A stretch of DNA of 62,882 bases, filler included, from Rhabdomonas costata (Eukaryota): the NCBI GenBank assembly GCA_019059605.1. It is 37 parts of 37 records of this genome, joined end to end, with 100 filler letters (N's around TTAATTAATTAA, not from the genome) between each part and the next. Parts side by side here need not be neighbours in the genome. Positions count along the whole stretch, not along the records: positions 13,626 to 15,228 come from JAHMHO010012194.1; 36 more parts are not named here. One strand, written 5' to 3'. This document shows, piece by piece, positions 13,526 through 54,485 of this stretch (position 1 is the stretch's first letter; every line of letters starts with the position of its first letter). A program made the position numbers and the translations under genes. The notes beneath the pieces are model-generated. The model did not search any database, had not been told where the DNA came from, and worked only from the letters and a program-made list of their open reading frames with translations.

Positions 13526-13968
13526 NNNNNNNNNNNNNNNNNNNNNNNNNNNNNNNNNNNNNNNNNNNNTTAATTAATTAANNNNNNNNNNNNNNNNNNN
13601 NNNNNNNNNNNNNNNNNNNNNNNNNGTGGGCGAGAGGGTGACAGATAAGATTCATACGTCTTCATTTCCATATCTCTGTCACCCTCTCGCCCACCAGACA
13701 AACCGCTTTCGGAGCCGAAAGACCTGAGCAGGGAAGCCTCGACCTGAGCATGATAAACACACAACAAGCAGGGGTTTCGGAAGGGGTGGGGGGCAAGTGA
13801 AAAAGGTTTAAGGAGTAGAAACAGAACCATATGAGAGGACGACCGCCAAGAGGACCGAGAACGGTAAAAGTGCAAAGGGTGACATTGAGAGAATCAGACG
13901 CATATCCGTTGTGACAGCAGTGCCAAAAGGAAGGTACAAGAGCTCGCCAGAGGAATGGTGCGGCCTAC

Positions 13969-14592
13969 CTGTCCGGGAAGACTGCAACCCTGATTCGCCA
14001 CTCGAAGCCGCGATGGACCTGTCATAGGGGTTTCAACGAAGACCCCAGCTGCGCCTCCAGCCTCCGCGACAGGGCTGAGGAGAGCCCACGACCGGGTCAG
14101 CCTGGCGTTGACAAAGATACCGGTGGGCCTCACCTCGATCTCGGCTCGGGGACACGTGGTGCCCTCGCCGCAGTGCCCGTGCCGGCCCCACGCCGGGAAT
14201 TCCTCCTCCTTGATCCTTCCCTCGGCTCGGACGTGCCCGAAGAAGAACGTGGTGCCCCAGAAGTTGGGCTTGAAGTCCAGCGCAAGGTGGCCCCCGTCCT
14301 CGGTCAAGATACGGTAGGACATCTGCACGTCCCCGCTTTGCAGCCTGGCCTCCACAGGGAAGGGGCACCTGTGGAGAAGAAAGCGAACATAGGTTGGGCA
14401 GCCCACCCCGCGTCACGTTCTCCGCACGGTACGCAGGAAAGCACTAACACACACGCACATACACACACGCACACACCGGTTGACTATCACCACCACGACC
14501 TTGTCCAGGTGGTTCTTCCAGTACTTCTTCAGCTCTTCGAAACCCTTCCACGGAGGGTTACCCGCCGCCATCGCTTGAGATGCGGCATCCAT
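13969..14592 (-). CDS. Spliced gene with a plant self-incompatibility S1/SPH-like domain (exons 14592-14477 and 14368-13969)
   Basis: A 108-nt GT-AG intron (14476-14369) joins the frames to give ...KVVVVIVNRCPFPVEARLQSGDVQMSYRILTEDGGHLALDFKPNFWGTTFFFGHV...HCGEGTTCPRAEIEVRPTGIFVNARLTRSW, which follows SPH motif order. Confidence 0.6.
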
Positions 14593-15393
14593 CTTCGTGT
14601 GCGTGTGTTCAAGGGAAGGCTACCAATAAGAAAAAACCAGTGAAAACCCAGACTCACGCACACGACATGCCGAGGCTGGCTGGCGGCCACTGCTGCTGGT
14701 GGTTGCTGATGGTGGTGAAATCGAGGGCATCCCTGTTGCTTGTGTCCTCTGAAGTGGCTTGCCACAGCTTTGGACACGTTCAAAGGTTGCCTTACGGGGC
14801 CACTGCTGCTGGTGGTGAAATCGAGGGCATCTCTAGGTTTTCAATGAAGCGCTGCACGTCGCTAATCCAGACTACATTATCCTGATTGGGACAGTTGGGT
14901 GAGTTAGGACTGCGTTGGAAACTGACGGTGCTCTCGAAGTGCATGATACCCGTGTTTAATTGTTTCTCACATTCACCGGGCCCTTTTTCAAACCGAGTGC
15001 ATGATGTGGCGATTCTTGCCGAACACCGTACCCTCGGGCCGGGGGGCACATGAAAGGCGACAGAGCCAGCCTGATTGGTTGTGTTGAACGTTCCCGCCCT
15101 TCCACAGACCACCTAACTGAGCAGGCTCGGTTTTCGCGTCCTTTCTAACGGTCCGAAATACTCTGTTGCAACTCCGTCCACTCCGTCCAAATCGACACAC
15201 GGTTTCAACGGATGCTAACCCACCAAAANNNNNNNNNNNNNNNNNNNNNNNNNNNNNNNNNNNNNNNNNNNNTTAATTAATTAANNNNNNNNNNNNNNNN
15301 NNNNNNNNNNNNNNNNNNNNNNNNNNNNTTTGTTTTTTGTGTACTTTATTTGTGTTTTGGACTCTGTGGTTCGCGAATGCGTGGGGGGTTCAG

Positions 15394-18958: not shown

Positions 18959-18986
18959 TTGAAGTTTGGATGTAAAAAAATATAAT
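18959..18986 (+). promoter_or_regulatory. Sigma70-like promoter upstream of infC
   Basis: TTGAAG (18959-18964), 16-nt spacer, perfect TATAAT (18981-18986), about 50 nt before the probable start. Confidence 0.5.
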
Positions 18987-19035
18987 CACCCGATCCTTTG
19001 GGACTTGGAACGCCTTCAACAGGCTTAGGTGCAAT

Positions 19036-19566
19036 ATTCCTGATTCGCATAACAATTTTTTTAGAATCACCGATAAGATTACGGCACAAACCGTAAGGCT
19101 GGTGGATGATGAAGGAAAATTCGTAGGGATCGTAGGTATATCTGAGGCCCTAAGGCTGGCAGGGGAAGCGGGGATTGACCTTATTGAAGTTTCTCCGAAA
19201 GCTGTTCCACCTGTCTGCAAAATGGGAGATGCAGCTCGGCTGAGATACGAGCAGAAGAAGCGACTCCAGGCTGGCAAGAAGAAGCAAACAAAAATACAGC
19301 TGAAAGAGGTCCGGTTGAGGCCGGCCATAGAACAGCACGATTTTGATGTAAAACTCAAAGGTATCTTGAGGTTTCTCGCCGATGGCTGTCATGTAAAGAT
19401 TTTGGTCAGGTTTAGGGGACGTGAGGTATTGCACAATCAAGATGGTCGAGATCTGCTTGCAAAGATTTTAGAGCAGGTCGGTGCTCTTGCCGTCGCCGAG
19501 GCGCCCGTAAAGTTAGATGGAAAGCAGATGATCTTAAAGATTATTCCGAGGAAGACACCAGCCTAG
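19036..19566 (+). CDS. infC: Bacterial translation initiation factor IF-3, probable ATT start
   Basis: Intronless. Contains RITDKITAQTVRLVDDEG, DLIEVSPKAVPPVCK, KEVRLRPAIEQHDFDVKL and VKILVRFRGRE. The frame is open upstream of the called GTG (19102) to an ATT at 19036 preceded by AGGTG. Confidence 0.95.
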   Translation: MPDSHNNFFRITDKITAQTVRLVDDEGKFVGIVGISEALRLAGEAGIDLIEVSPKAVPPVCKMGDAARLRYEQKKRLQAGKKKQTKIQLKEVRLRPAIEQHDFDVKLKGILRFLADGCHVKILVRFRGREVLHNQDGRDLLAKILEQVGALAVAEAPVKLDGKQMILKIIPRKTPA

Positions 19567-34273: not shown

Positions 34274-34390
34274 CCAAAGACCATCAAAGACGCATTCAAT
34301 TATTACACATCAGCGGATCGAATATGACACCAGCACACAATCAGCCGACCAAGGAGAGGAACTTAAAGCTTACATGACAGCGATTGTCAC

Positions 34391-35522
34391 CTGAGTCCGA
34401 GTGAGGCTGAGGATGATGACGTCGTTCTCCTCGCCCTGGAAGCGGTCCACGGTGTGCACGGCCACGGCGCCCTCCAAAGCCCCGAATCTCCGCCGAAGCT
34501 CCACGCACTGCCCTTTGTATGGGGTCAGCACTGTCAGCGAGGATGGAGCCAAGCCACGCGCCAGCAGGTACGCCCCCAACTGGAAGCACACCCGCACCTC
34601 GTAAGGGTTCATCACGCTCAGCCCCACCGTGCTGGGCTGCTCCGGTTGAGTATGGGTGAGAAAAAACAGAGACTGCAGCATCCCAGGGACCTGTGCACAA
34701 CCCCACAATGATCGGACAAAAAAGGAGGAGTTCCCTTCCAAAGGACAAACGATAGCAACCCGATAAGACCTGAAAGCAGATGCAAAACCTCGCACCTTGC
34801 TAATGGTACTTGTGAGTCAGAGGGAAGAGAAAGAGGAAACCCTCAGCTAATGCAGCGCAACACCTTTCATGGCAACCGAATCGAGCAACAGGAGAATCAT
34901 ACTAGACTATCTACAATTTGCCGCAGCCTCTCCGTCTAACTTTGGTGGAGGTCTGCAGATGGCCTGCAGGCACATCCCTATTGCCCTGCAAAACAAACAA
35001 CCTCGCCCGGCTCTCCAAATGACCCCAAATACCCAAATTCACAGCTCCTTCAGTGAAGCATTCACGTGCTAAACCACGGAAAACCCGGCTTTTTGGCGCA
35101 GGAGGGCACGACAGAGGAATCATCGCTGCGCACCTTTCCGACGGTCTCTCCACTGGCCAAAGTCAGGGTCCGAGCCTCCAGCGAGGGCTCATCCCTGAGG
35201 CTAGGGTAGATCGGCTTCACAAACTGGGAGATGAAGGGCATCATCCGCCTCTGCGTGGACAGGACTTGGCAGGGAAGCCCGTTGCCGTTCATCCGCTCAA
35301 ACAGAGAGAGGTCCACCCCACACAGCCTCTCCAGGGCATAGTTGTTGATAATCGGCCGCAGCTGCAGATGATCTCCCAGCAGCACGACCTGCTGCACAGA
35401 GGGGGGCAGACAGCTGATGATCTGCGCCTCCAGAACCTCTGCGGCTTCCTCCACGAATACCGCGGAGGGATGCAGCTCCCGCAACAGCGCTGCGTGGATC
35501 GCCGCTCCAGTGGTCGTCATGC
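34391..35522 (-). CDS. ZNFX1: ZNFX1-like UPF1/SF1 RNA helicase (exons 35522-35134 and 34690-34391)
   Basis: GMTTTGAA, VEEAAEVLEA, GDHLQLRP, SLFERM, QRRM, LTPYKGQ and TVDRFQGEENDVIILSL. MTTTGAA, EEAAEVLE and QGEEND are typical of the ZNFX1 subfamily. Confidence 0.88.
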
Positions 35523-35985
35523 CTTTTCAAGAGCACGTCCGAGACGGAAAGCACGCAATGCGCTGCCCTACTGCTGCAACGACAATATTCTGCCCATGCC
35601 ACTTCAATAGTGACTTGTGCCGCATGTCAACCGTGAGAGCTTCAAACCACAACTTCCCACCACCCNNNNNNNNNNNNNNNNNNNNNNNNNNNNNNNNNNN
35701 NNNNNNNNNTTAATTAATTAANNNNNNNNNNNNNNNNNNNNNNNNNNNNNNNNNNNNNNNNNNNNTTTTTGGGGTAACTTATAGGCAGTCATTTGCAGCA
35801 GTTAAAGAAGGGATTTTGGCAGTATAACACTGGTTGCTGTAATGCTACATTGAACAGGTGAGTGTTTTGAATTTACTGAACAGGCCTAGTTTCAATATCG
35901 CACAGTTTCTGTAAAAATAGTCCTCTCCTAAGTATAAGCTGGATCATAATCAAGACATGCTCAGTGGAAAGCGCGTGTCTTCTTC

Positions 35986-42987: not shown

Positions 42988-43773
42988 GGGAGATTCCCAA
43001 CCTTTTTGAGGCCCCCGAGCAGGACGAGATCCTGAACGTGATGAAGCCGATCTGCGTCAGCGAAGGCCTACCCCTGACGAAGGTAACATCACTTGTTTAT
43101 ACACTGTGTATATCGTACTGTTGGTGTGAGGATTGATTTTCACCCTACTCCCCACCCTCCGCACGGTTGCCGAGGCAGTCACCGAGTAACAACGAAGCTG
43201 TCGGTCTTATCCTTCATCCGTTTTCGGCTGACTTGCGCCAACATCCCTTTTCCCCGCCTTAACGTTTAGGCCTTGTCTCTTGGAATGGAGATTTTGTCAC
43301 CGTCCAGTCTTCCAGCCCTGTGCCGTTGACATTCCTTGCATCTTCCATGTCGATGCACAATATCTACACTCTCACGACCTTCATCCTGTTCATCACCCAC
43401 ACAGCTCCTCCCCCTCGCATCCAGCTATTATAATTTCCATATCCCGCCCCAGTCTGTATTTTCAGTTTTTACTGCAGTGCTGTGTCTCAGAAGCTGGGCT
43501 ATTTGTTGCACTGCCTTTTTCCTTTTTAACCACTGAACAACAACACCCTGCGCTTTTCGCCACCGCGCTCAGGTCTCGATGTTCGCGAGGTTTGTGCGGT
43601 TTGTGCGGTTCAACATCCACATCAGTCTCTGCATGAGCCCCCAGGGCGAGGTCTTCCGCAGCCGCCTGCGAATGTTCCCCGCGCTGGTCAACTGCTGCAC
43701 CATCGACTGGTTCAGCGCCTGGCCCGACCAGGCCCTGCACTCCGTTGCGGACAATGCCTTCAACGCAGTCCAG
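42988..43773 (+). CDS. DNAH1: Axonemal dynein heavy chain AAA4 region (exons 42988-43082, 43573-43773), DNAH1-like
   Basis: GEIPNLFEAPEQDEI...LTK|VSMFARFV...NIHISLCMSPQGEVFRSRLRMFPALVNCCTIDWFSAWPDQALHSVA. It may belong to the same gene as 23855-25429. Confidence 0.92.
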
Positions 43774-44569
43774 GTCCGGCCCCCCTCAACCCCCTTTCCG
43801 CTTCTTGTTCTGCTCTTCTACTTTTCGGTTCCAGACCACTCCTACAGACGCGGCGAACGGGTGCCTTGAGAACCACGTCGTATGGTATGCTGTGCTTCGC
43901 ACCGAATCGGAAGCTGTCAGCCGTTATACTGAAGCGGCAGTTGTCACTCTCAGTTGACAAAGTTGCAAAAATTTCTCTTCTCTTCTCTCCAACATGAGCG
44001 ACCCGAGCGAAATTCCTTGCGGTTCCATGCAAGAGATGGGGTGGAGGAAGCAAAGTTTCCCTGAAGGATGTCAATACTGAAATCAGGTTGGCAAGAGGCA
44101 GGAATCAAGTCTCACCCACATCTGCACAGCTTGCGGAGCACCTGCAATGGCTCTGAGAACCCCAAAAANNNNNNNNNNNNNNNNNNNNNNNNNNNNNNNN
44201 NNNNNNNNNNNNTTAATTAATTAANNNNNNNNNNNNNNNNNNNNNNNNNNNNNNNNNNNNNNNNNNNNGTTTTGTTTTTCCAAAACACAGTATGCGGATA
44301 TTTTCGTTGTACGCAGGAGCTCGTGGGCTCTTCTGTGCGGGTCTCCGCGAGTTTTGATCTGCACGGCAACGGCTCCGCACGGGTGGTCTCCGCGCTAGAC
44401 ATCTTGACGGCCTACCGCACAGCCCCCCACATTGACGTCCGTGAGACCCAAATTCGGGCTGTCCGGCTTCTGCTGCGCTGCATCCGGTGCGCCATGCCTC
44501 CCCTTCCTCTCTCATGTACTGTGATCTTTGCCTCCCTCTCATCAGCTCCGACAGCAGACGTTTCCTGTG

Positions 44570-44911: not shown

Positions 44912-46112
44912 ATCGCCTTCTTACCCATTCCTGTGGCCCTCTCTGGGGAGCAGAGCAGTACTCTTTTCGAGCCCTTCGCCACGCTCTACCGCGGCCTCGC
45001 CGAGGTCGATGGAGTGCCGTGCCCTCAGGTTATATATATATAACCTGCCCTGATGCAGGTCCCCACTTCCTCTTTTAGAAATACGGAATTGGAGCCAGCC
45101 CCTATTGCAGGCTCTCTGCGGCAGCTCCAGCTACACTGCGTCTCAATGCGGCTATGTTTCTGTGACACGGCACGGCTCTATCCTGCCTCTTCGGCCCGAG
45201 TGCTTGTTGTGCGTCTTTTCTCCCTCCAGCTTGGGCAAGAGTTGGGTTCCGTACAGACCACCTGTGCTGCGGAGGGTGTGATGGATGCCTCTCTGCTAGT
45301 GGGGTACATCTGGGCAGATGAGCCCCGGGCTGGGGCCTGGGTTGCCGTCACGGGAACGCGCCCAGGTCTGGGGGACGGGGCGGTTGTGGTGTGGGCGAGG
45401 GGCAGGGATGACCACTGACATATGGAGTAGTTGGGCATACATTTATGGTTGGTCACTTTTCTTGCACACCCCCTCCCACTCAGCATGTGGACTCGCTGAG
45501 TCAAAGCATTGCACAAAGAAAAGTTCTTAGGGGTATTAAAAGTAAAATTGCTATCATCTCACCCGAAGTACTCGCCCGAAGTATTTCCCATGAGCCTGTG
45601 AAGAAGGCAAAGCATACACCACCAAGTGTTTTGAGAAGTTTTCATGAAACAAACAGTGTATTAGTAAACAGTTAGGAAGACCAGAGATTGGTGTCGTCAT
45701 AACTTGAGCTGAAGTGGCCGGTTGGAATCCTGACTCGGTTGCTTGGTTGATGGCAGTGCCTCCTGAGTTGAGTTTGTTTGCAATTTCCATCCAAGGGTCC
45801 ATTTTTTCGCCTTCTCGACCTTGCCGTGGGAGTGGACTCTGAATCCGCTGGTGTAAGGATCCCCACAAAANNNNNNNNNNNNNNNNNNNNNNNNNNNNNN
45901 NNNNNNNNNNNNNNTTAATTAATTAANNNNNNNNNNNNNNNNNNNNNNNNNNNNNNNNNNNNNNNNNNNNGTTGTGTGTGACCACGTTTCTGAAAACGCT
46001 TTTTCTTTCACTGCACGAAGAACGCAGGAAACTTCCCGCTTTTGGGATTAGGGAGCTTCTGGTTTTTGGGTCATCGCTGTGGGTTCATCTTGGCGAACAA
46101 TTTTTTTCGCAG

Positions 46113-47784: not shown

Positions 47785-48662
47785 CTGGGATTTTTCAGGT
47801 TGAGCCAAGATGGGATCTGCCCGTTGGTCACCAGGAAAATGCGCCTGAGCGAAAGAAAAAGAAAGGTAAAGCTGATGCTCCTGAATGGATACTGGCACCC
47901 TGTTTGTGCAGGCATGCCCTGTGATCTGTGAAGTTTTCGTTTCAAAAAAAAGCTGAGGTAGAGTGTGCATCTCTTTGTTTGAAACTCTTGTTGAGCATTG
48001 AAGTAAACGAAAGACAAGTCAGCTAGGTGCGTTCAGATGAAGTGAGGAAAAAGAAGCGAAGAGAAATTCACGACCAGTTTGCACAACGTACGAACCGCTA
48101 CCTGAAAAATTCGAACTGCAGCAGGTGCAAAACCATGCACAGACAGGTCACACCAAACCCATGGAACATATTTTTCCACGGAGCGAAGGGAATAGCGCAG
48201 CTCCTGATTATCCTCGAACCGGCTCTTTCCTGCACGGTCACGGCCAAGCAGATCTGCCTTCGTTTGGTTGAAGGGCTCAAAGGGCACCCCAGAGCTCCCG
48301 TTGCTTCCGTTCGCAGCGCTAAGAAAACTGGCTTCGCGAGACTTATTCTCCTCCAACCTGTGGTAATACTCTAACTGAGCCAGCAGCAGTGGGTCGGAGC
48401 CATTCACATATGTGTAAACAATGTCCACCGGTTCGCCGCATAACAGGGTCTCAAAGGAAGACCCAGCCAGATTATCCTTGAAGTCCAGTCTTGGGCGATG
48501 AGGGCAAACAATGTCCGAGGCAAACCACCAGTCCAACAAATGAAGTGCCGAGTTCAGAGTAAAAACCGACGCTATGAACAGCACTGCCACTCCGGTCCGA
48601 GTGCTCAGCAGACTGTAGCACTGTCTCTGCAAAAGCTTCAGCACATGTTGTTCACGCCGCAT
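47785..48662 (-). CDS. GNPTAB: GlcNAc-1-phosphotransferase alpha/beta-like Stealth protein, 5' part (exons 48662-48154, 47844-47785)
   Basis: KLLQRQCYSLLSTRTG plus a TM helix, DNLAGSSF, Stealth CR1 PVDIVYTYVNGSD, and CR2 SRFEDNQELRYSLRSVEKYVPWV|xRIFLVTNGQIPSWLNLKNPR. Confidence 0.93.
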
Positions 48663-51600
48663 CCTTCTGCACTGCGCACTTTTCGTGCAGAAGACTCAGA
48701 ACCAGGAAGAGCAACTTTGATAAAGGAGATCAAATTGCTGAACTAAATCGGAATGAAAGACTGAGCAAAAACGAAAAGCAGCTGCACGATGCCTTCTTAA
48801 ACAGCACCCTTGACGCTTATTGGGTTCCTTTTTTGTCCCGTCAACTCCTCCTCCGCTTCAGAAACAAAAACGCCGACCATCAACTGTTGTGCAAGCGATG
48901 GCTGGGAGTACCCGTGTTTCCGTCCCTCGAGGCTGCGGCTGCCTTTTGCTCAGCTTGCCCAAGACCCTCCTTCAAAGCCTCAACGGTCACTCTCTGACCA
49001 GAGACTTTGCTGTCGTCATCGTCGTTGTCGTCAGGATGGCCTTCTTCCCTTCTTTCAAGTAGTTGGCAATTCGCTGCACCAACTCCACGGAGGGGCGTTC
49101 GCCTTCACCATCAGCTTTGGACTCTTTGCGAACATTGCGGGGGGCTCGTCTTGTTCACCTTTCGGAGGTTTGACGACACCGGGGCACTTGCTCCCTTATC
49201 CCTTTCGAGGGCAGGTGCTCGTCTGCAACCCTTCTCGTGGCGTGGCGTGGCGTGGCGTATTCGTACAACCACCCNNNNNNNNNNNNNNNNNNNNNNNNNN
49301 NNNNNNNNNNNNNNNNNNTTAATTAATTAANNNNNNNNNNNNNNNNNNNNNNNNNNNNNNNNNNNNNNNNNNNNGACTGAATGAAAACCCATGACCGTGT
49401 TGCACACCCAAGTGCAGCATAATGCAGAAAAAAGAAGCAAGTACGTGGGGAAAAAGCGCCGATTCCCAACGCATACAATCAATGAGCACAGCACGAAGCA
49501 AAAAAGCGACAAACACATTTCCACCTAAATACCCCTTACCCGTGGATGCAAGAGCACCCACCCTTTCTTTTCCCACGTAACCCACACCCCACACCACAAC
49601 CACAACCAAAAATACTGAAAGCTGAGAGCCCACCCACCCCGTCCACAACGGGAATGGCTCGCTGTGTGAAGCACCCGCCCCATTCCCACATTCCAGGACT
49701 GCGTGGTTTCACCTTGTAAACATTGTGATTACGATGCCCACGATGGCATCGGAGTATCCCCCAACCAATTTTCACAATCCATTGTTGCGTTCTCCGAAAG
49801 ATTATTGAACCACAGCCGAAATATCCTGGTCGCTCACCGAAACGGGAACGCCCACTTCTTTCTCGAATTGTCCACGGTAAAACCGTGAGACGTGAAGCAC
49901 ATGCTCGTCTCATTTTGGGAAACTCGACATCTCCACAGGCAGCAAGCATACACGCACAAAGCACAAAGTCCCACAAAGGAGTCAGGGTGCGTTTCGCCAC
50001 TGCCCTCTCCGAAGGACAACTGCGCTGGCGAGACAAAAAAAATAACGGCAAAAAGGTAACAGAGACCACCCAAATCCCAGAGTTAACCGCTACCAGTGGT
50101 GACAACTTCTTTCTTCGATGCACATTTCAAAAAGTCCCGCCAGGTCACCGCCCGCTCCGCCAACTCGCCCCACATTATCCCAGCCAGAGTCCTAAGCCAG
50201 CAGTAGTTATGAGGTCTTAAGCAAACAAAAACGCGTCTTTATCAAAGGCAGCACTGGCACAGTTTGTCCAACCCCCTTACGCTAAAATAAAGATATTTCA
50301 AGTGTACTGGCATATTTTACGTGACTGTTTCCAAGTGAGCAATAGTTTTCAGGTTGTATTCTGTTACCACTCGTGACCACTGTTAACAGTTACCACTCCC
50401 CCCTCGCCAAACTTCCATTGCGCCGAAGAGAGCATCAATGAGGAGCGGGGAGGGGGGGCACACTTGGAGCCCGAAAAAAGAAAAAAAACGCAGAGCAAAA
50501 GCAGTGGCAAAAAAGTGGTGTTTCGCCTGAAGAAAAACGGGCGAAACAAATGGTGCGGAAACACAAAAACAATCAGAGGCACGTAAAAAGGAAACCCAAG
50601 CAGCAACGGGCATCATTTTGGGGGGTCGATAAACGAAGAATTTTTGGCGTTAAACTGTGGCCAGACGTGTAACGCCACAAGCCTTACACCCCACAACCAC
50701 CCCCGACTGTGGATGAAACGTGAAGGACAAAGCAAACAAAAAAACTCCGTCAGTTGGAGGTGTGGGTGAGAGTGCGAGAGAGAGCACAGTAACGTACACC
50801 ACTGCAACGAGAACACGCAGATACAGAGGCAAGCTAGAGAAGCCCCACCGCATGCTGCCTGTCAGACAGCCCGCCATCCTTTATAAACGGGAGCCAGAAC
50901 GACGAAAACGACCCTTACCGTCGGACCCACACAAACTCAGAAATGGGTGCCGTTACACAGTCCCATGGGACGCGTGNNNNNNNNNNNNNNNNNNNNNNNN
51001 NNNNNNNNNNNNNNNNNNNNTTAATTAATTAANNNNNNNNNNNNNNNNNNNNNNNNNNNNNNNNNNNNNNNNNNNNCTTAGTTTTTTTGTGTTGATTTGA
51101 TTTTTTTTGGGGGGGGGGGAGAGGCTTACTACCTCAACGATTTTCTACCTTCTTGTCATTAGTGGAGAATGCTCTTAATTATCACCCTCTCCCCGCTACA
51201 CCGATTCGCATTATAGCCCAATTAATTTCAGACATCTCGTGCAATATGAACGGCTAATTCTCCTGGACTGTCACGGGACCCTTGAGTTGACGTGTGTCTC
51301 TCCACCCTATTTTTCGCTTTGACTTCTGTGCTGTCGTTGTAAACCTCCCGAGTCGAGTTCTGAGGTTCAAGTTCTGAGGACGACTTGCGTTGGGTGCGGT
51401 CTCACAGACGCAGCCGCCTCAGGTCCAGCGCCCGGCGATACAGAAGTGTGTCTCGCATCCGTTCGTGCAGGCCTTCGGGGTTTCCGGGTTCCTTTTGGTC
51501 TTTATGTTTCCCTTGAATTCGATTTTAGGGCAAACTGACTCGTGAACCCGGGTTTTGTTTTGAGTTTTCACAGACACCCTGCTGATCAGAGGTTCTTCGT

Positions 51601-51803
51601 CATTGTTTGGGTCCGCAGACTGCGTAATTGCATGATTCAAGTGCTTGTATTGTGCATCGAATCAAAAGGCTACACGAGCGCAGTGCATCGGAGCCGCAGC
51701 AGCGGGGAATCAGAACCTGTCAGGTTGTGCTGCATTGCCCTGTCTTCTGAAAAAACAGAGCACCAGAATCAGACATGCTTGGTGGACGTGACGTTGTAAT
51801 AAG

Positions 51804-52101
51804 GATCCCAGCGGAACTCCCAATGTCTGAGGCACCTCTAGTAGAGAAGTCGATGGAACTTCCGGCTGACTTAGCTGAAAGGGGCGGAGCAACGGATTCG
51901 GGGAAACGCCGCAGGACCTCTGCGGCGGTTCGGATCCAGTCGGCTTGGCGGGGGTTCCTGGGAAGGCTGGAGCTCCGAGTGCGGAGGATCCGCCGGGCCA
52001 TGGATGGGATGCGGAGGCCCACCCCCAGGGAGTGTGCCACGGTGGTGCAGGCCTTTGCCCGGACCAAGCTGAGCGTCACCGAGGCTCATTTCAAATGGCT
52101 G
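51804..52101 (+). CDS. Exon of an IQ calmodulin-binding-motif protein
   Basis: AAVRIQSAWRGFLGR (canonical IQ) and a degenerate CATVVQAFARTKLS; ends at a GTTTGT donor. Confidence 0.6.
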
Positions 52102-54485
52102 GTTTGTGGCGCGGATGGTTCGATGCACCCGGGATGCTTTTTGTGGATATTCTGATGTTCAGATCTTCTGGCTTGTGGAAAACGTGAAAGAAGCGCCGCT
52201 ACGGTATGTGGCCAGCTGCGGCTCCCAGTCCTGGCAGTGGACCCTTGCTGAAATTTGCGGTTCCAGCAAGCGGAACATGGACTTGTGCTGCTGTTGACAA
52301 TTGTGCCTAATAAGAAAATGAGCAACGTGCTTCCCCTCGTCATGCCCGTGGCTCTAGGTCCGTGTGAAGAATTCCACGGACATCTGGACCAAGGTGGGGT
52401 CAAACACGCCACCCTCTGAGAATGCGGATCCTGCTCACGTATGATGCTGCTCTGATCCCTCGTGCGTAGCTATTCCAAGATTTCTGCTTTTTCAGGAAGA
52501 TACTGAGCTGCGCTGTGCATGCGGGAGGCGGGGACGTTTCAGTTGGAACTGGCGAACGGCGAAGACTGTGATGTGCATGATGGTCTTTGAAAGACTTCGT
52601 CCGAATGCAGAAAATAGCCCATTCGTTCGGCTCGAGCACAGGCCCCCTGAAGCAGCAACCACACGGACACAACCCACANNNNNNNNNNNNNNNNNNNNNN
52701 NNNNNNNNNNNNNNNNNNNNNNTTAATTAATTAANNNNNNNNNNNNNNNNNNNNNNNNNNNNNNNNNNNNNNNNNNNNTGTGGGGTGTTGGATGATGTAT
52801 TCAATCTCGGCTGCGTGTTTCCCAGGGTCCCCTTGTCAAGGACTGCCTAGATGGAATGAACTAGGCACAAAAAAAGGAGCTGAAGGGAACCGCTGAAACG
52901 GAAAAGGTACTCCCCAAATGAAAAATGACTCGCCCGACTATGAGGTGTATACTAAATGAGACACGTAAATGAGGTGCGGATGTTCAGATGTGGGCAGACG
53001 GGGTGGGGAGTGAGCGGAATCCTTCTGGGATGCACACCGTTGCCAGGGAAGGGACAGGTTCGGCGTCCGCAGCGGGGTTGGCGTCGCAGCGAAGAACCCG
53101 ATCCGCGGTGAGAGCATGGGTCACCGCCATTGTCCCAGAGAGCACATCCACAACCTGAGGGGCACACGGCAAGCACGACTTGCGAGGGGTCAGACAGAAA
53201 TTCCCCCCCCCCCGGAGTTCAACATCAGCAGTATCCTGCATATCTGAACGACGGAGAATCATTGCTGCGTGGAGAAAGCAAAAGAGAAAGACGGATATTA
53301 TAGCACGCGATTCGTGAACAGCAGCTTTCAGATGTATGGCAAAAGTTGTAGATGCCTCCTAGGTTCCGCGCCCACTACGCGGCCGAATGGCCTCCCCCCC
53401 ACTATTCTCCAGCCCAGCGACAAGATGGTCATTATCATCATTTGAGGCAGCTAGCACTTGGGTAAAAAAAACTCAGCCTCCCATTTAGTCGAAAGAATTT
53501 CCCAACGAGTTTTAATTTCGGCCTTGCACACATTGCACCATGCACGCAAAGCGGACCCGCGCAAAGCCACACCCGCATCGCGAAGGCTCCCAGGTAGCAT
53601 AGGCTCTGGGTGTTCTGGAACAGCTGCAGCAAGTCAGGGCCGTGGGCCCAGCCCCGGGACTCCGTTACCCCAACCTCCATGATCGCAAACCCGTACACCC
53701 TATATACATCACAACGCCCTACATCACATCGACACAAGGCACGGGTCTGCGCGACCCAACCTCATGGTATCACCCCGTTCACAAAGGTTTGATGTGGCAT
53801 TGTGACTGACGGGTGCACAATTTGTGAGCCCTATGATGACTGATGTCATTCGTCCTGGAGCGGCTCCCACGCATCCACCTTTCGGGATTCTGTTGCTGTC
53901 TTATTTCGTTCGGCCCTCTCTATCCCCCTAATCCCTTCTATAAATGCGGGGGAAAGGTAGACCCTGAAGAGTGACTGCCTTTGACAAGCAACCAAGGAAC
54001 GCCCAGCAGGTATCTTGATCTCTCAGGTATACTACGGGTATACTACTAAGAACTACCAAGGGCATATCCACACAGGGTGCACAAGACATGGTAAATTTGA
54101 AGACTTGAGACCCTCTAGGGGGCTCTGGGGTAGAGGTGCTTGAGAAACCTCATTGGCGTAATAAAATGTTTCGCAGAATTCGAAAATCTGCAATCAGTTA
54201 GAGGCAAGGCCAACGAGCAGCCCAACCCGAGCAGTGGGTAACCGTGGGGTGAAGACACACCGCTCTGGGGGTGTGTGCACCTCAGCCAGCCGAGCCTCAA
54301 AGAGCTGCTTCTGCTGCACCTTGTTCCCGAACACACCTTGCAATAAGGGCGAGCGGGTACGGGGTCACATAATGCCCCACNNNNNNNNNNNNNNNNNNNN
54401 NNNNNNNNNNNNNNNNNNNNNNNNTTAATTAATTAANNNNNNNNNNNNNNNNNNNNNNNNNNNNNNNNNNNNNNNNNNNNGTGGT

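Follow-up and report, generated by a model that had tools for sequence, protein, structure and literature searches.

Does the genome of a flagellate hold a spliced gene for a domain of the plant self-incompatibility S1 family? The question is raised by positions 14592 to 13969, read on the minus strand, of a 62,882-base stretch of Rhabdomonas costata DNA (assembly GCA_019059605.1; hereafter the window), where an earlier note had read a gene with an S-protein homologue (SPH, PF05938) domain. The window consists of 37 separate contigs of 1592-1607 bp, ordered apparently by size and joined by linkers of the form N44-TTAATTAATTAA-N44, and since it is a concatenation of separate contigs, sequence context across the linkers is meaningless. 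The contig that bears the gene (13626-15228, 1603 bp, GC content 0.565) provides a genomic context of only ~640 bp upstream and ~340 bp downstream. The locus is built of exons and an intron, has the codon bias of coding sequence and shows a resemblance specific to this family over the whole domain, and we favour, with a probability of roughly 0.6, the reading that it encodes a divergent, cysteine-poor SPH-like domain in a real spliced flagellate gene.

Exon-intron anatomy and codon usage

The gene starts at an ATG read from the sequence at 14592-14590 on the minus strand. The coding part of exon 1 (14592..14477, 116 nt) comprises the initiator Met, 38 codons and 2 nt, and encodes a hydrophilic, helix-prone N-terminus followed by KVVVVIVN, the candidate first strand of the domain. 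It reads GTC AAC CG/GTGTGT (slashes mark splice boundaries) into a GT-AG intron of 108 nt (14476..14369), in phase 2 and in frame, which opens with a (GT)n-like run (GTGTGT) and closes with a pyrimidine tract and CAG (TTCGCTTTCTTCTCCACAG). An in-frame TGA lies within this intron at 14415-14413, so that its removal is required: unspliced, the frame is closed. The remainder of the SPH-like domain, as far as a Trp at 14088-14086, comes from exon 2 (14368..13969, 400 nt, 133 full codons), which then codes for a 39-residue tail rich in Ala, Gly and Pro. When the exons were joined by coordinates with a script, the coding sequence came to 516 nt and the product to 172 aa, M-(30 hydrophilic residues)-KVVVVIVN-R-CPFPVEARLQSGD…FKPNFWGTTFFFGHV…C-x5-C…EVRPTGIFV…LTRSW followed by the tail; the candidate SPH-like beta-sandwich domain (14086..14502, minus strand) runs from K31 to the terminal Trp, ~103 residues after splicing. 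Coordinates, strand and splice of the 108-nt intron were all as the earlier note had claimed, and the motifs it had quoted for the spliced product were present in the translation.

Codon usage was scored with a model trained on the seven open reading frames (ORFs) of the window that had Pfam matches above the cut-off (1086 codons, from an IF-3 gene, two helicase pieces and dynein, Stealth, IQ and M81 fragments). Exon 1 scored 0.28 and exon 2 0.26 bits/codon in the proposed frame; the intron scored -0.02, and exon 2 did not exceed 0.11 in any of its other five frames. Among 135 non-training ORFs of at least 100 aa (mean 0.004, standard deviation (sd) 0.095), the ORF at 13897-14412(-) ranked first, and the training exons, each left out in turn, ranged from -0.08 to 0.33 bits/codon. 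The GC content at third codon positions (GC3) of the gene was 0.76-0.77 vs 0.57 for the contig and the intron. Furthermore, the acceptor CACAG/G and the donor G/GTG are alike in the gene and in a helicase intron on another contig.

It could be envisaged that there is no gene here at all, and that a chance open frame in GC-rich non-coding DNA happens to be accompanied by a GT...AG pair. The window holds 142 stop-free stretches of at least 100 codons, mostly non-coding, an even longer ORF of 242 aa lies on the opposite strand (13915-14640 (+)), and the locus product, for which no homologue was found, was absent from the protein collections searched. In contrast, however, the codon score is the best of the 135 ORFs and falls inside the leave-one-out range of the confirmed exons, it is frame-specific and drops within the intron, and the acceptor has a clear pyrimidine tract. 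The antisense ORF, which is Arg/Pro/Gly-rich and without a Pfam match, occupies the codon-aligned frame and is interpreted as the mirror ORF expected opposite a GC3-rich gene. We therefore regard a chance frame as very unlikely, and on these sequence features the gene is in all probability real.

Both ends of the gene allow for some latitude. At the 3' end (13894..13968, minus strand) exon 2 closes on a possible donor, CAG/GTAGGC, where a second intron (GTAGGC...) may start, or the frame runs on through 24 further codons up to a TGA at 13896-13894, in which case the protein has 196 aa. The further exon of the earlier note is thus a possibility only, weaker than had been claimed; the codon score of the 24-codon extension (0.10 bits/codon) is not decisive, and the contig ends (13626) 343 nt beyond the proposed exon-2 donor. 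At the 5' end a pyrimidine-rich tract ending in TAG (14620..14638, minus strand; ggttttttcttattggTAG/ccttcc...gaag ATG) lies 27 nt upstream of the ATG. Its TAG doubles as the in-frame stop bounding the ORF, and from its sequence TAG/CC at 14620 may be a 3' splice or spliced-leader acceptor. After the Met there is no hydrophobic segment of the kind found in signal peptides, and an upstream exon joined at the 14620 acceptor is possible.

Some further features of the contig were recorded. Within exon 2, at 14075-14133 (-), a consensus-like donor (GAG/GTGAGG) is followed 59 nt downstream by a pyrimidine-rich acceptor (CTCTCCTCAG/); this 59-nt GT..AG pair (14133..14075), a possible alternative or cryptic splice, was set aside, as its removal shifts the frame to an early stop and costs two family-aligned strands. 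Upstream, ~100-240 nt from the ATG (14685-14834), there are two repeats with a spacing of 100 nt each, a direct one of 31 nt with 94% identity and another of 19 nt. A perfect inverted repeat of 20 nt around a 29-nt loop (13626-13694) stands exactly at the end of the contig and could be either a true hairpin or an artefact of assembly. A scan of the contig for bacterial promoters and terminators, which is irrelevant for a eukaryote, gave matches at shuffle level only.

Resemblance to the SPH family

In a Pfam search exon 2 matched PF05938 (Self-incomp_S1) with 16.1 bits (E 0.018) at profile positions 20-92 of 104, thus covering 73 of the 104 positions, and this was the sole family returned at E up to 10. 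The resemblance was then measured with profiles specific to the family. A degenerate pattern for an SPH motif yielded 119 metagenome loci with 62 complete distinct ORFs of 110-170 aa, and an alignment of 35 of these (A1) consisted of PF05938 members throughout (35/35, best E 1.7e-33). In a profile search A1 in turn retrieved 841 proteins, and the 120 best were all annotated PF05938; the named proteins among the matches listed came from land plants. A hidden Markov model (HMM) of 164 nodes was built from 146 sequences, reduced to 67 by a 60% identity filter.

Compared by hhalign with this profile of 67 non-redundant plant SPH proteins, the spliced domain scored 41.8 (probability 92.3%, pairwise E 5.7e-7) and exon 2 alone 37.0 (87.6%); with A1 the corresponding values were 36.6 (84.0%) and 31.6 (66.7%). 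Since the spliced domain exceeded exon 2 alone with both profiles, exon 1 adds signal, by ~5 units. The decoys had a mean of 11.5 (sd 2.1-2.4), and reached a maximum of 17.4 (2.2%) for 135 other ORFs of the window and 23.9 (17.7%) for 216 shuffles of the domain. The exon-1 peptide DKVVVVIVN was placed by hhalign on the first strand of the family, and with a low mact setting the alignment between spliced domain and profile took in 105 columns. A separate hhalign run against the 35 plant SPH proteins of A1 gave 60.5% over 58 columns for exon 2 and 51.7% for the read-through sequence.

The signal was also found beyond the core motif. A forced alignment of the full domain by our own glocal Viterbi procedure (nodes 41-145) scored +8.7 bits, a value that none of 600 full shuffles reached (mean -41, sd 6) and that one of 600 reached when the core motif was fixed and the flanks alone were shuffled. 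Of 2000 shuffles for each flank taken by itself, 14 equalled the N flank and 43 the C flank. The terminal 9-mer fully encoded by exon 1 scored 10.7 bits ungapped on the first-strand nodes, and eight of the 87,987 9-mers in the six-frame translation of the window were as good. The match of exon 2 at profile positions 20-92 predicts a V-x-I-x-N strand ~12 residues upstream, and such a strand was found at the end of a separate, ATG-initiated and codon-biased exon, brought to the right spacing by a canonical in-frame intron. The chance of fitting an upstream strand, over ~860 upstream positions and with the donor requirement, would be roughly 1 in 100, and the case for homology is raised because the first-strand prediction was borne out by exon 1.

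A number of results nevertheless weigh against homology, and many of them favour a different explanation, namely that the gene is real and encodes a lineage-specific all-beta orphan whose SPH likeness arose by chance or convergence around F-K-P-N-F-W-G-T-T-F-F-F. The PF05938 score is below the 24-bit gathering threshold (16.1 bits for exon 2, 15.2 bits for the whole ORF); with the intron read through as X it was 14.7 bits, and exon 1 was not drawn into the Pfam or hhalign match. Ten of 141 other window ORFs of at least 100 aa have a best Pfam match at E 0.01-0.05, and one of these ten is the antisense of the IF-3 gene, with a spurious 7tm_2 match at E 0.015. Because other ORFs match equally weakly, the Pfam match alone, at E 0.018, is background for a window-wide screen. 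The local hmmsearch scores were 12.3 bits for exon 2 and 12.0 for the spliced protein, the best of 421 other window ORFs having 4.1; one of 5000 composition-matched shuffles reached 11.8 bits, and the local alignment covers a 27-residue core, GGHLALDFKPNFWGTTFFFGHVRAEGR, only. Likewise, hmmalign of the spliced protein to our own HMM aligned the core motif only. The family profile was seeded on one motif and is thus a biased sample of the family, and the hhalign E of 5.7e-7 holds for a single comparison, which multiplied by ~25,000 families comes to ~0.01 again. On the statistics alone, counting the implicit all-against-all screen, the match of exon 2 could therefore have arisen by chance.

Blind searches for relatives pointed in the same direction. 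With exon 2 as query, phmmer found no homologue among 1.84 billion representative proteins; two matches, to a 946-aa protein (ten copies, 27-residue match) and to a 6605-aa repeat protein, proved by pairwise BLAST to be repeat artefacts. In a word-indexed protein search, run with exon 2 both at E 0.01 and at E 10, 50 candidates came up, none of which was scored, and neither the 598 pattern matches of a metagenome scan nor the 44 of a viral scan were confirmed by tblastn. No intermediate relatives were thus encountered in the representative proteins, metagenomes and viruses searched, as would be expected of an orphan. A search of PDB by sequence gave three matches at E 1.4-1.9, none SPH-related, and tblastn of the spliced protein against the window gave no paralogue, the next best match being at E 3.5. 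In a scan of prokaryote genomes with the SPH alignment, one usable pattern gave six matches, of which none was confirmed, so that Bacteroidetes members were neither found nor excluded. In the ESM Atlas the two best clusters (0.79 and 0.77) were S-protein homologues, the nearest named cluster type, and unnamed clusters gave no usable match; by the tool's own calibration such scores are weak, shuffled proteins attaining them in about one case in three, and the Atlas signal probably depends on the core motif.

The residues themselves were compared in a MAFFT alignment with 58 SPH proteins, to which the query is 11-25% identical. Both invariant columns are kept in the query (S11 and T40), as are the near-invariant D13, F32, C72, G83 and W94. 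The query shows, in order, V-I-V-N, S-G-D, F-K-P-N-F-W-G-T-T-F-F, one Cys, G-I-F and a terminal W, and the order in the family is V-x-I-x-N, C-x-S-x-D, F-x-P-x-F-x-x-T-L-F-x-C, C-x2-C-x-W, G and a terminal W. The losses, too, count against membership and are of the kind an orphan would display. The four conserved cysteines of SPH proteins are paired as disulphides, and one of the four columns (C72) keeps its Cys; the first two columns hold L9 and G44, in accordance with the earlier observation that the first cysteine pair is replaced by L and G, and the fourth, the Cys before W, is Ala in the printed alignment. The near-invariant Trp column is Ile. The C-x5-C quoted in the earlier note counts for less than had been claimed, since it is out of register with C-x2-C-x-W: one Cys aligns, and the other query Cys lies 6 residues upstream of C72. 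No signal peptide is visible, as had been noted before, and the first 30 residues downstream of the Met form a hydrophilic stretch that is modelled as a helix. Thus, with Cys and Trp columns replaced and no signal-like segment, the protein is not a canonical SPH member even if it is related.

Structure prediction was carried out with AlphaFold2. From the single sequence the mean predicted local distance difference test (pLDDT) was 32.5, a low confidence that again tells against the domain, and the resulting model was all-beta in the domain. The exon-2 part (100 residues, without the first strand), folded with a borrowed alignment of 58 SPH proteins (A3), gave a pLDDT of 64.5, which is modest even with such help, and a predicted template modelling score of 0.47; strand positions were similar in the two models. 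An alignment of the read-through sequence (A2) was dropped for folding, the intron-encoded peptide having been mis-aligned by MAFFT to the first strand. When the alignment-based model was compared with PDB by Foldseek, no match was obtained at E 0.001 or better, and the top rows were Hsp70 substrate-binding domains at E ~0.4. The sole model that resembled SPH15 (6G7G) was the one built from the SPH alignment, a circumstance that suits the orphan explanation; since that alignment imposes the family fold, the model shows fold compatibility only, and neither the AlphaFold2 models nor Foldseek gave an independent fold match.

The balance between these two explanations rests on the signal outside the core. 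An orphan that resembles the family by chance would not be expected to have flanks that score as they do with the motif held fixed, a separate exon that supplies the first strand at the right spacing, an hhalign score of 41.8 against a decoy maximum of 23.9, or a domain length and terminal W that agree with the family. We consider such an orphan rather unlikely. Taken together, the first-strand prediction, the signal found on either side of the core and the agreement in domain length and terminal Trp suggest that homology with SPH proteins is probably true. The resemblance in sequence is beyond chance for the SPH family taken singly, yet is not significant as a blind Pfam match. Accordingly, the assignment to PF05938 stood in part: it is the sole Pfam family matched and the profile comparison goes beyond the decoys, and it lies below the gathering cut-off and brings no homologue with it.

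Source of the contig and its neighbours in the window

The divergent SPH-like domain could also be thought to come from a contaminant, that is, from a plant, nematode or fungus with ordinary genes of the SPH family, as the contigs are unlinked pieces of ~1.6 kb whose membership in one genome is not demonstrable by linkage. PF05938 is said to be known only from plants and some nematodes, and 16 nematode sequences, of hevein, GH18 or LysM proteins, are reported to carry a domain like it (PMC5297725), and an occurrence outside plants is thus not unprecedented. The query, however, shares only 11-25% identity with the SPH rows, lacks the signal peptide and cysteines of plant SPH proteins, and found no SPH protein among its sequence-search matches; with no plant SPH protein matching closely, a plant contaminant is the less likely. 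Moreover, it is the best of all ORFs in its fit to the codon usage of the other contigs, and its splice signals and (GT)n-rich intron are in the style of the window. This best-of-window codon fit and shared intron style indicate that the contig belongs with the others, and contamination appears highly improbable.

The other contigs bear on what that source is. A fragment of an axonemal inner-arm dynein heavy chain (43537-43866 (+); AAA_8, E 4e-25) matched in PDB 9e5c, which we take to be a trypanosome structure, at E 1.1e-30 and 9y6s at 2.1e-28, ahead of the human (4.8e-21) and Chlamydomonas chains. The latter of the two leading entries is the Leishmania tarentolae doublet microtubule (bioRxiv 10.1101/2025.11.06.687033). 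By sequence the dynein is closest to kinetoplastid axonemal chains, which suggests, and fits, a euglenozoan-like flagellate as the source. Taken together with the spliceosomal introns on other contigs, the kinetoplastid-like dynein suggests a euglenid-like flagellate.

A ZNFX1/UPF1-like helicase of two exons (34373-35526 (-); AAA_11, AAA_12) has NFX1-type zinc finger-containing protein 1 as its best PDB match (E 4e-17) and a GT-AG intron of 443 nt in phase 0 (35133..34691; AAG/GTGCGC ... GTGCACAG/GTC). An intron-free, bacterial-type translation initiation factor IF-3 (18976-19563 (+); IF3_N E 4e-23, IF3_C E 3e-27) is presumably organelle-targeted. Further gene fragments comprise a Stealth CR1/CR2 piece, GlcNAc-1-phosphotransferase-like (48036-48695 (-)), an M81/DUF1485 peptidase piece (45044-45415 (+)) and an IQ calmodulin-binding motif (51751-52152 (+)). 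An Rfam scan of the whole window gave no matches.

Proposed role and comparison with known systems

If the favoured reading of a divergent SPH-like domain is followed, the contig would hold the 5' part, and possibly all, of a nuclear protein-coding gene of a euglenozoan-like flagellate. Loss of the 108-nt intron would leave a 30-residue hydrophilic N-terminus and an all-beta domain of ~103 residues, a putative relative, though a very divergent one, of the beta-sandwich of plant SPH / Self-incomp_S1 proteins. As there is no visible signal peptide and three of the four stapling cysteines are lost, the protein probably folds in the cytosol as a small beta-sandwich. There, by analogy with the structural neighbours of SPH15, it might work as a small module that binds a membrane surface or a protein partner, either by itself or as the N-terminal head of a longer protein, and it would not be a secreted self/non-self ligand; nothing here indicates a role in self/non-self recognition. 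A broader proposal, that the SPH family has an unrecognised intracellular, cysteine-poor branch in euglenozoan flagellates and that the ligand fold came from, or was exchanged with, an older eukaryotic cytosolic binding domain, we regard as unlikely and put forward tentatively.

So far the SPH family has been regarded as one of secreted land-plant ligands stapled by cysteines, with some domains in nematodes besides. Should the homology be true, the range of the SPH fold would widen to a protist, in a form without a signal peptide or disulphides that bears on the origin of the plant self-incompatibility ligand family and on the role of the fold outside cell-cell signalling. At present there is a single orphan gene, which may be incomplete, on a contig of 1.6 kb; its similarity is below threshold, and the locus is to be taken as a lead, not a result. 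A full-text literature search gave no paper joining S-protein homologues with Euglena, and the papers found on PF05938, SPH proteins and SPH15 dealt with plants, nematodes or structural neighbours only.

In the literature SPH proteins are characterised as small secreted proteins with disulphide bonds (PMC6439154). In contrast to these, the query is without a visible signal peptide, has Leu for Cys1, Gly for Cys2, Ala for Cys4 and Ile for the Trp, and has lost the acidic turn of the K-S-K-D-D-D-L-G type; its gene has an intron inside the domain and comes from a flagellate and not from a land plant. The SPH proteins fetched here have ~110-170 aa, compared with 172 aa visible in the query, or 196 aa if the frame runs to the TGA at 13894. 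The structural neighbours of SPH15 are reported to be transthyretin-like beta-sandwiches, namely the membrane-binding domain 4 of pneumolysin and perfringolysin, the luminal domain of HGSNAT, and AlgF; theirs is a likeness of fold only, without a relation in sequence, and a model built from the SPH alignment cannot discriminate among them. The nematode proteins have extracellular chitin-binding or chitinase architectures, and no such partner domains occur in the ~170 visible residues of the query. Like the query, the nematode PF05938-like domains occur outside plants, and theirs is a context other than that of the small free ligand. Finally, as in Papaver PrsS and Arabidopsis SPH15 (PDB 6G7G), the predicted domain is all-beta and of ~105 residues, and it shares with the SPH family, in matching order, the V-x-I-x-N strand, the S-x-D turn, F-x-P-N-F-x-G-T-T-x-F, a Cys-containing loop, the G-I-F/Y strand and the terminal W.

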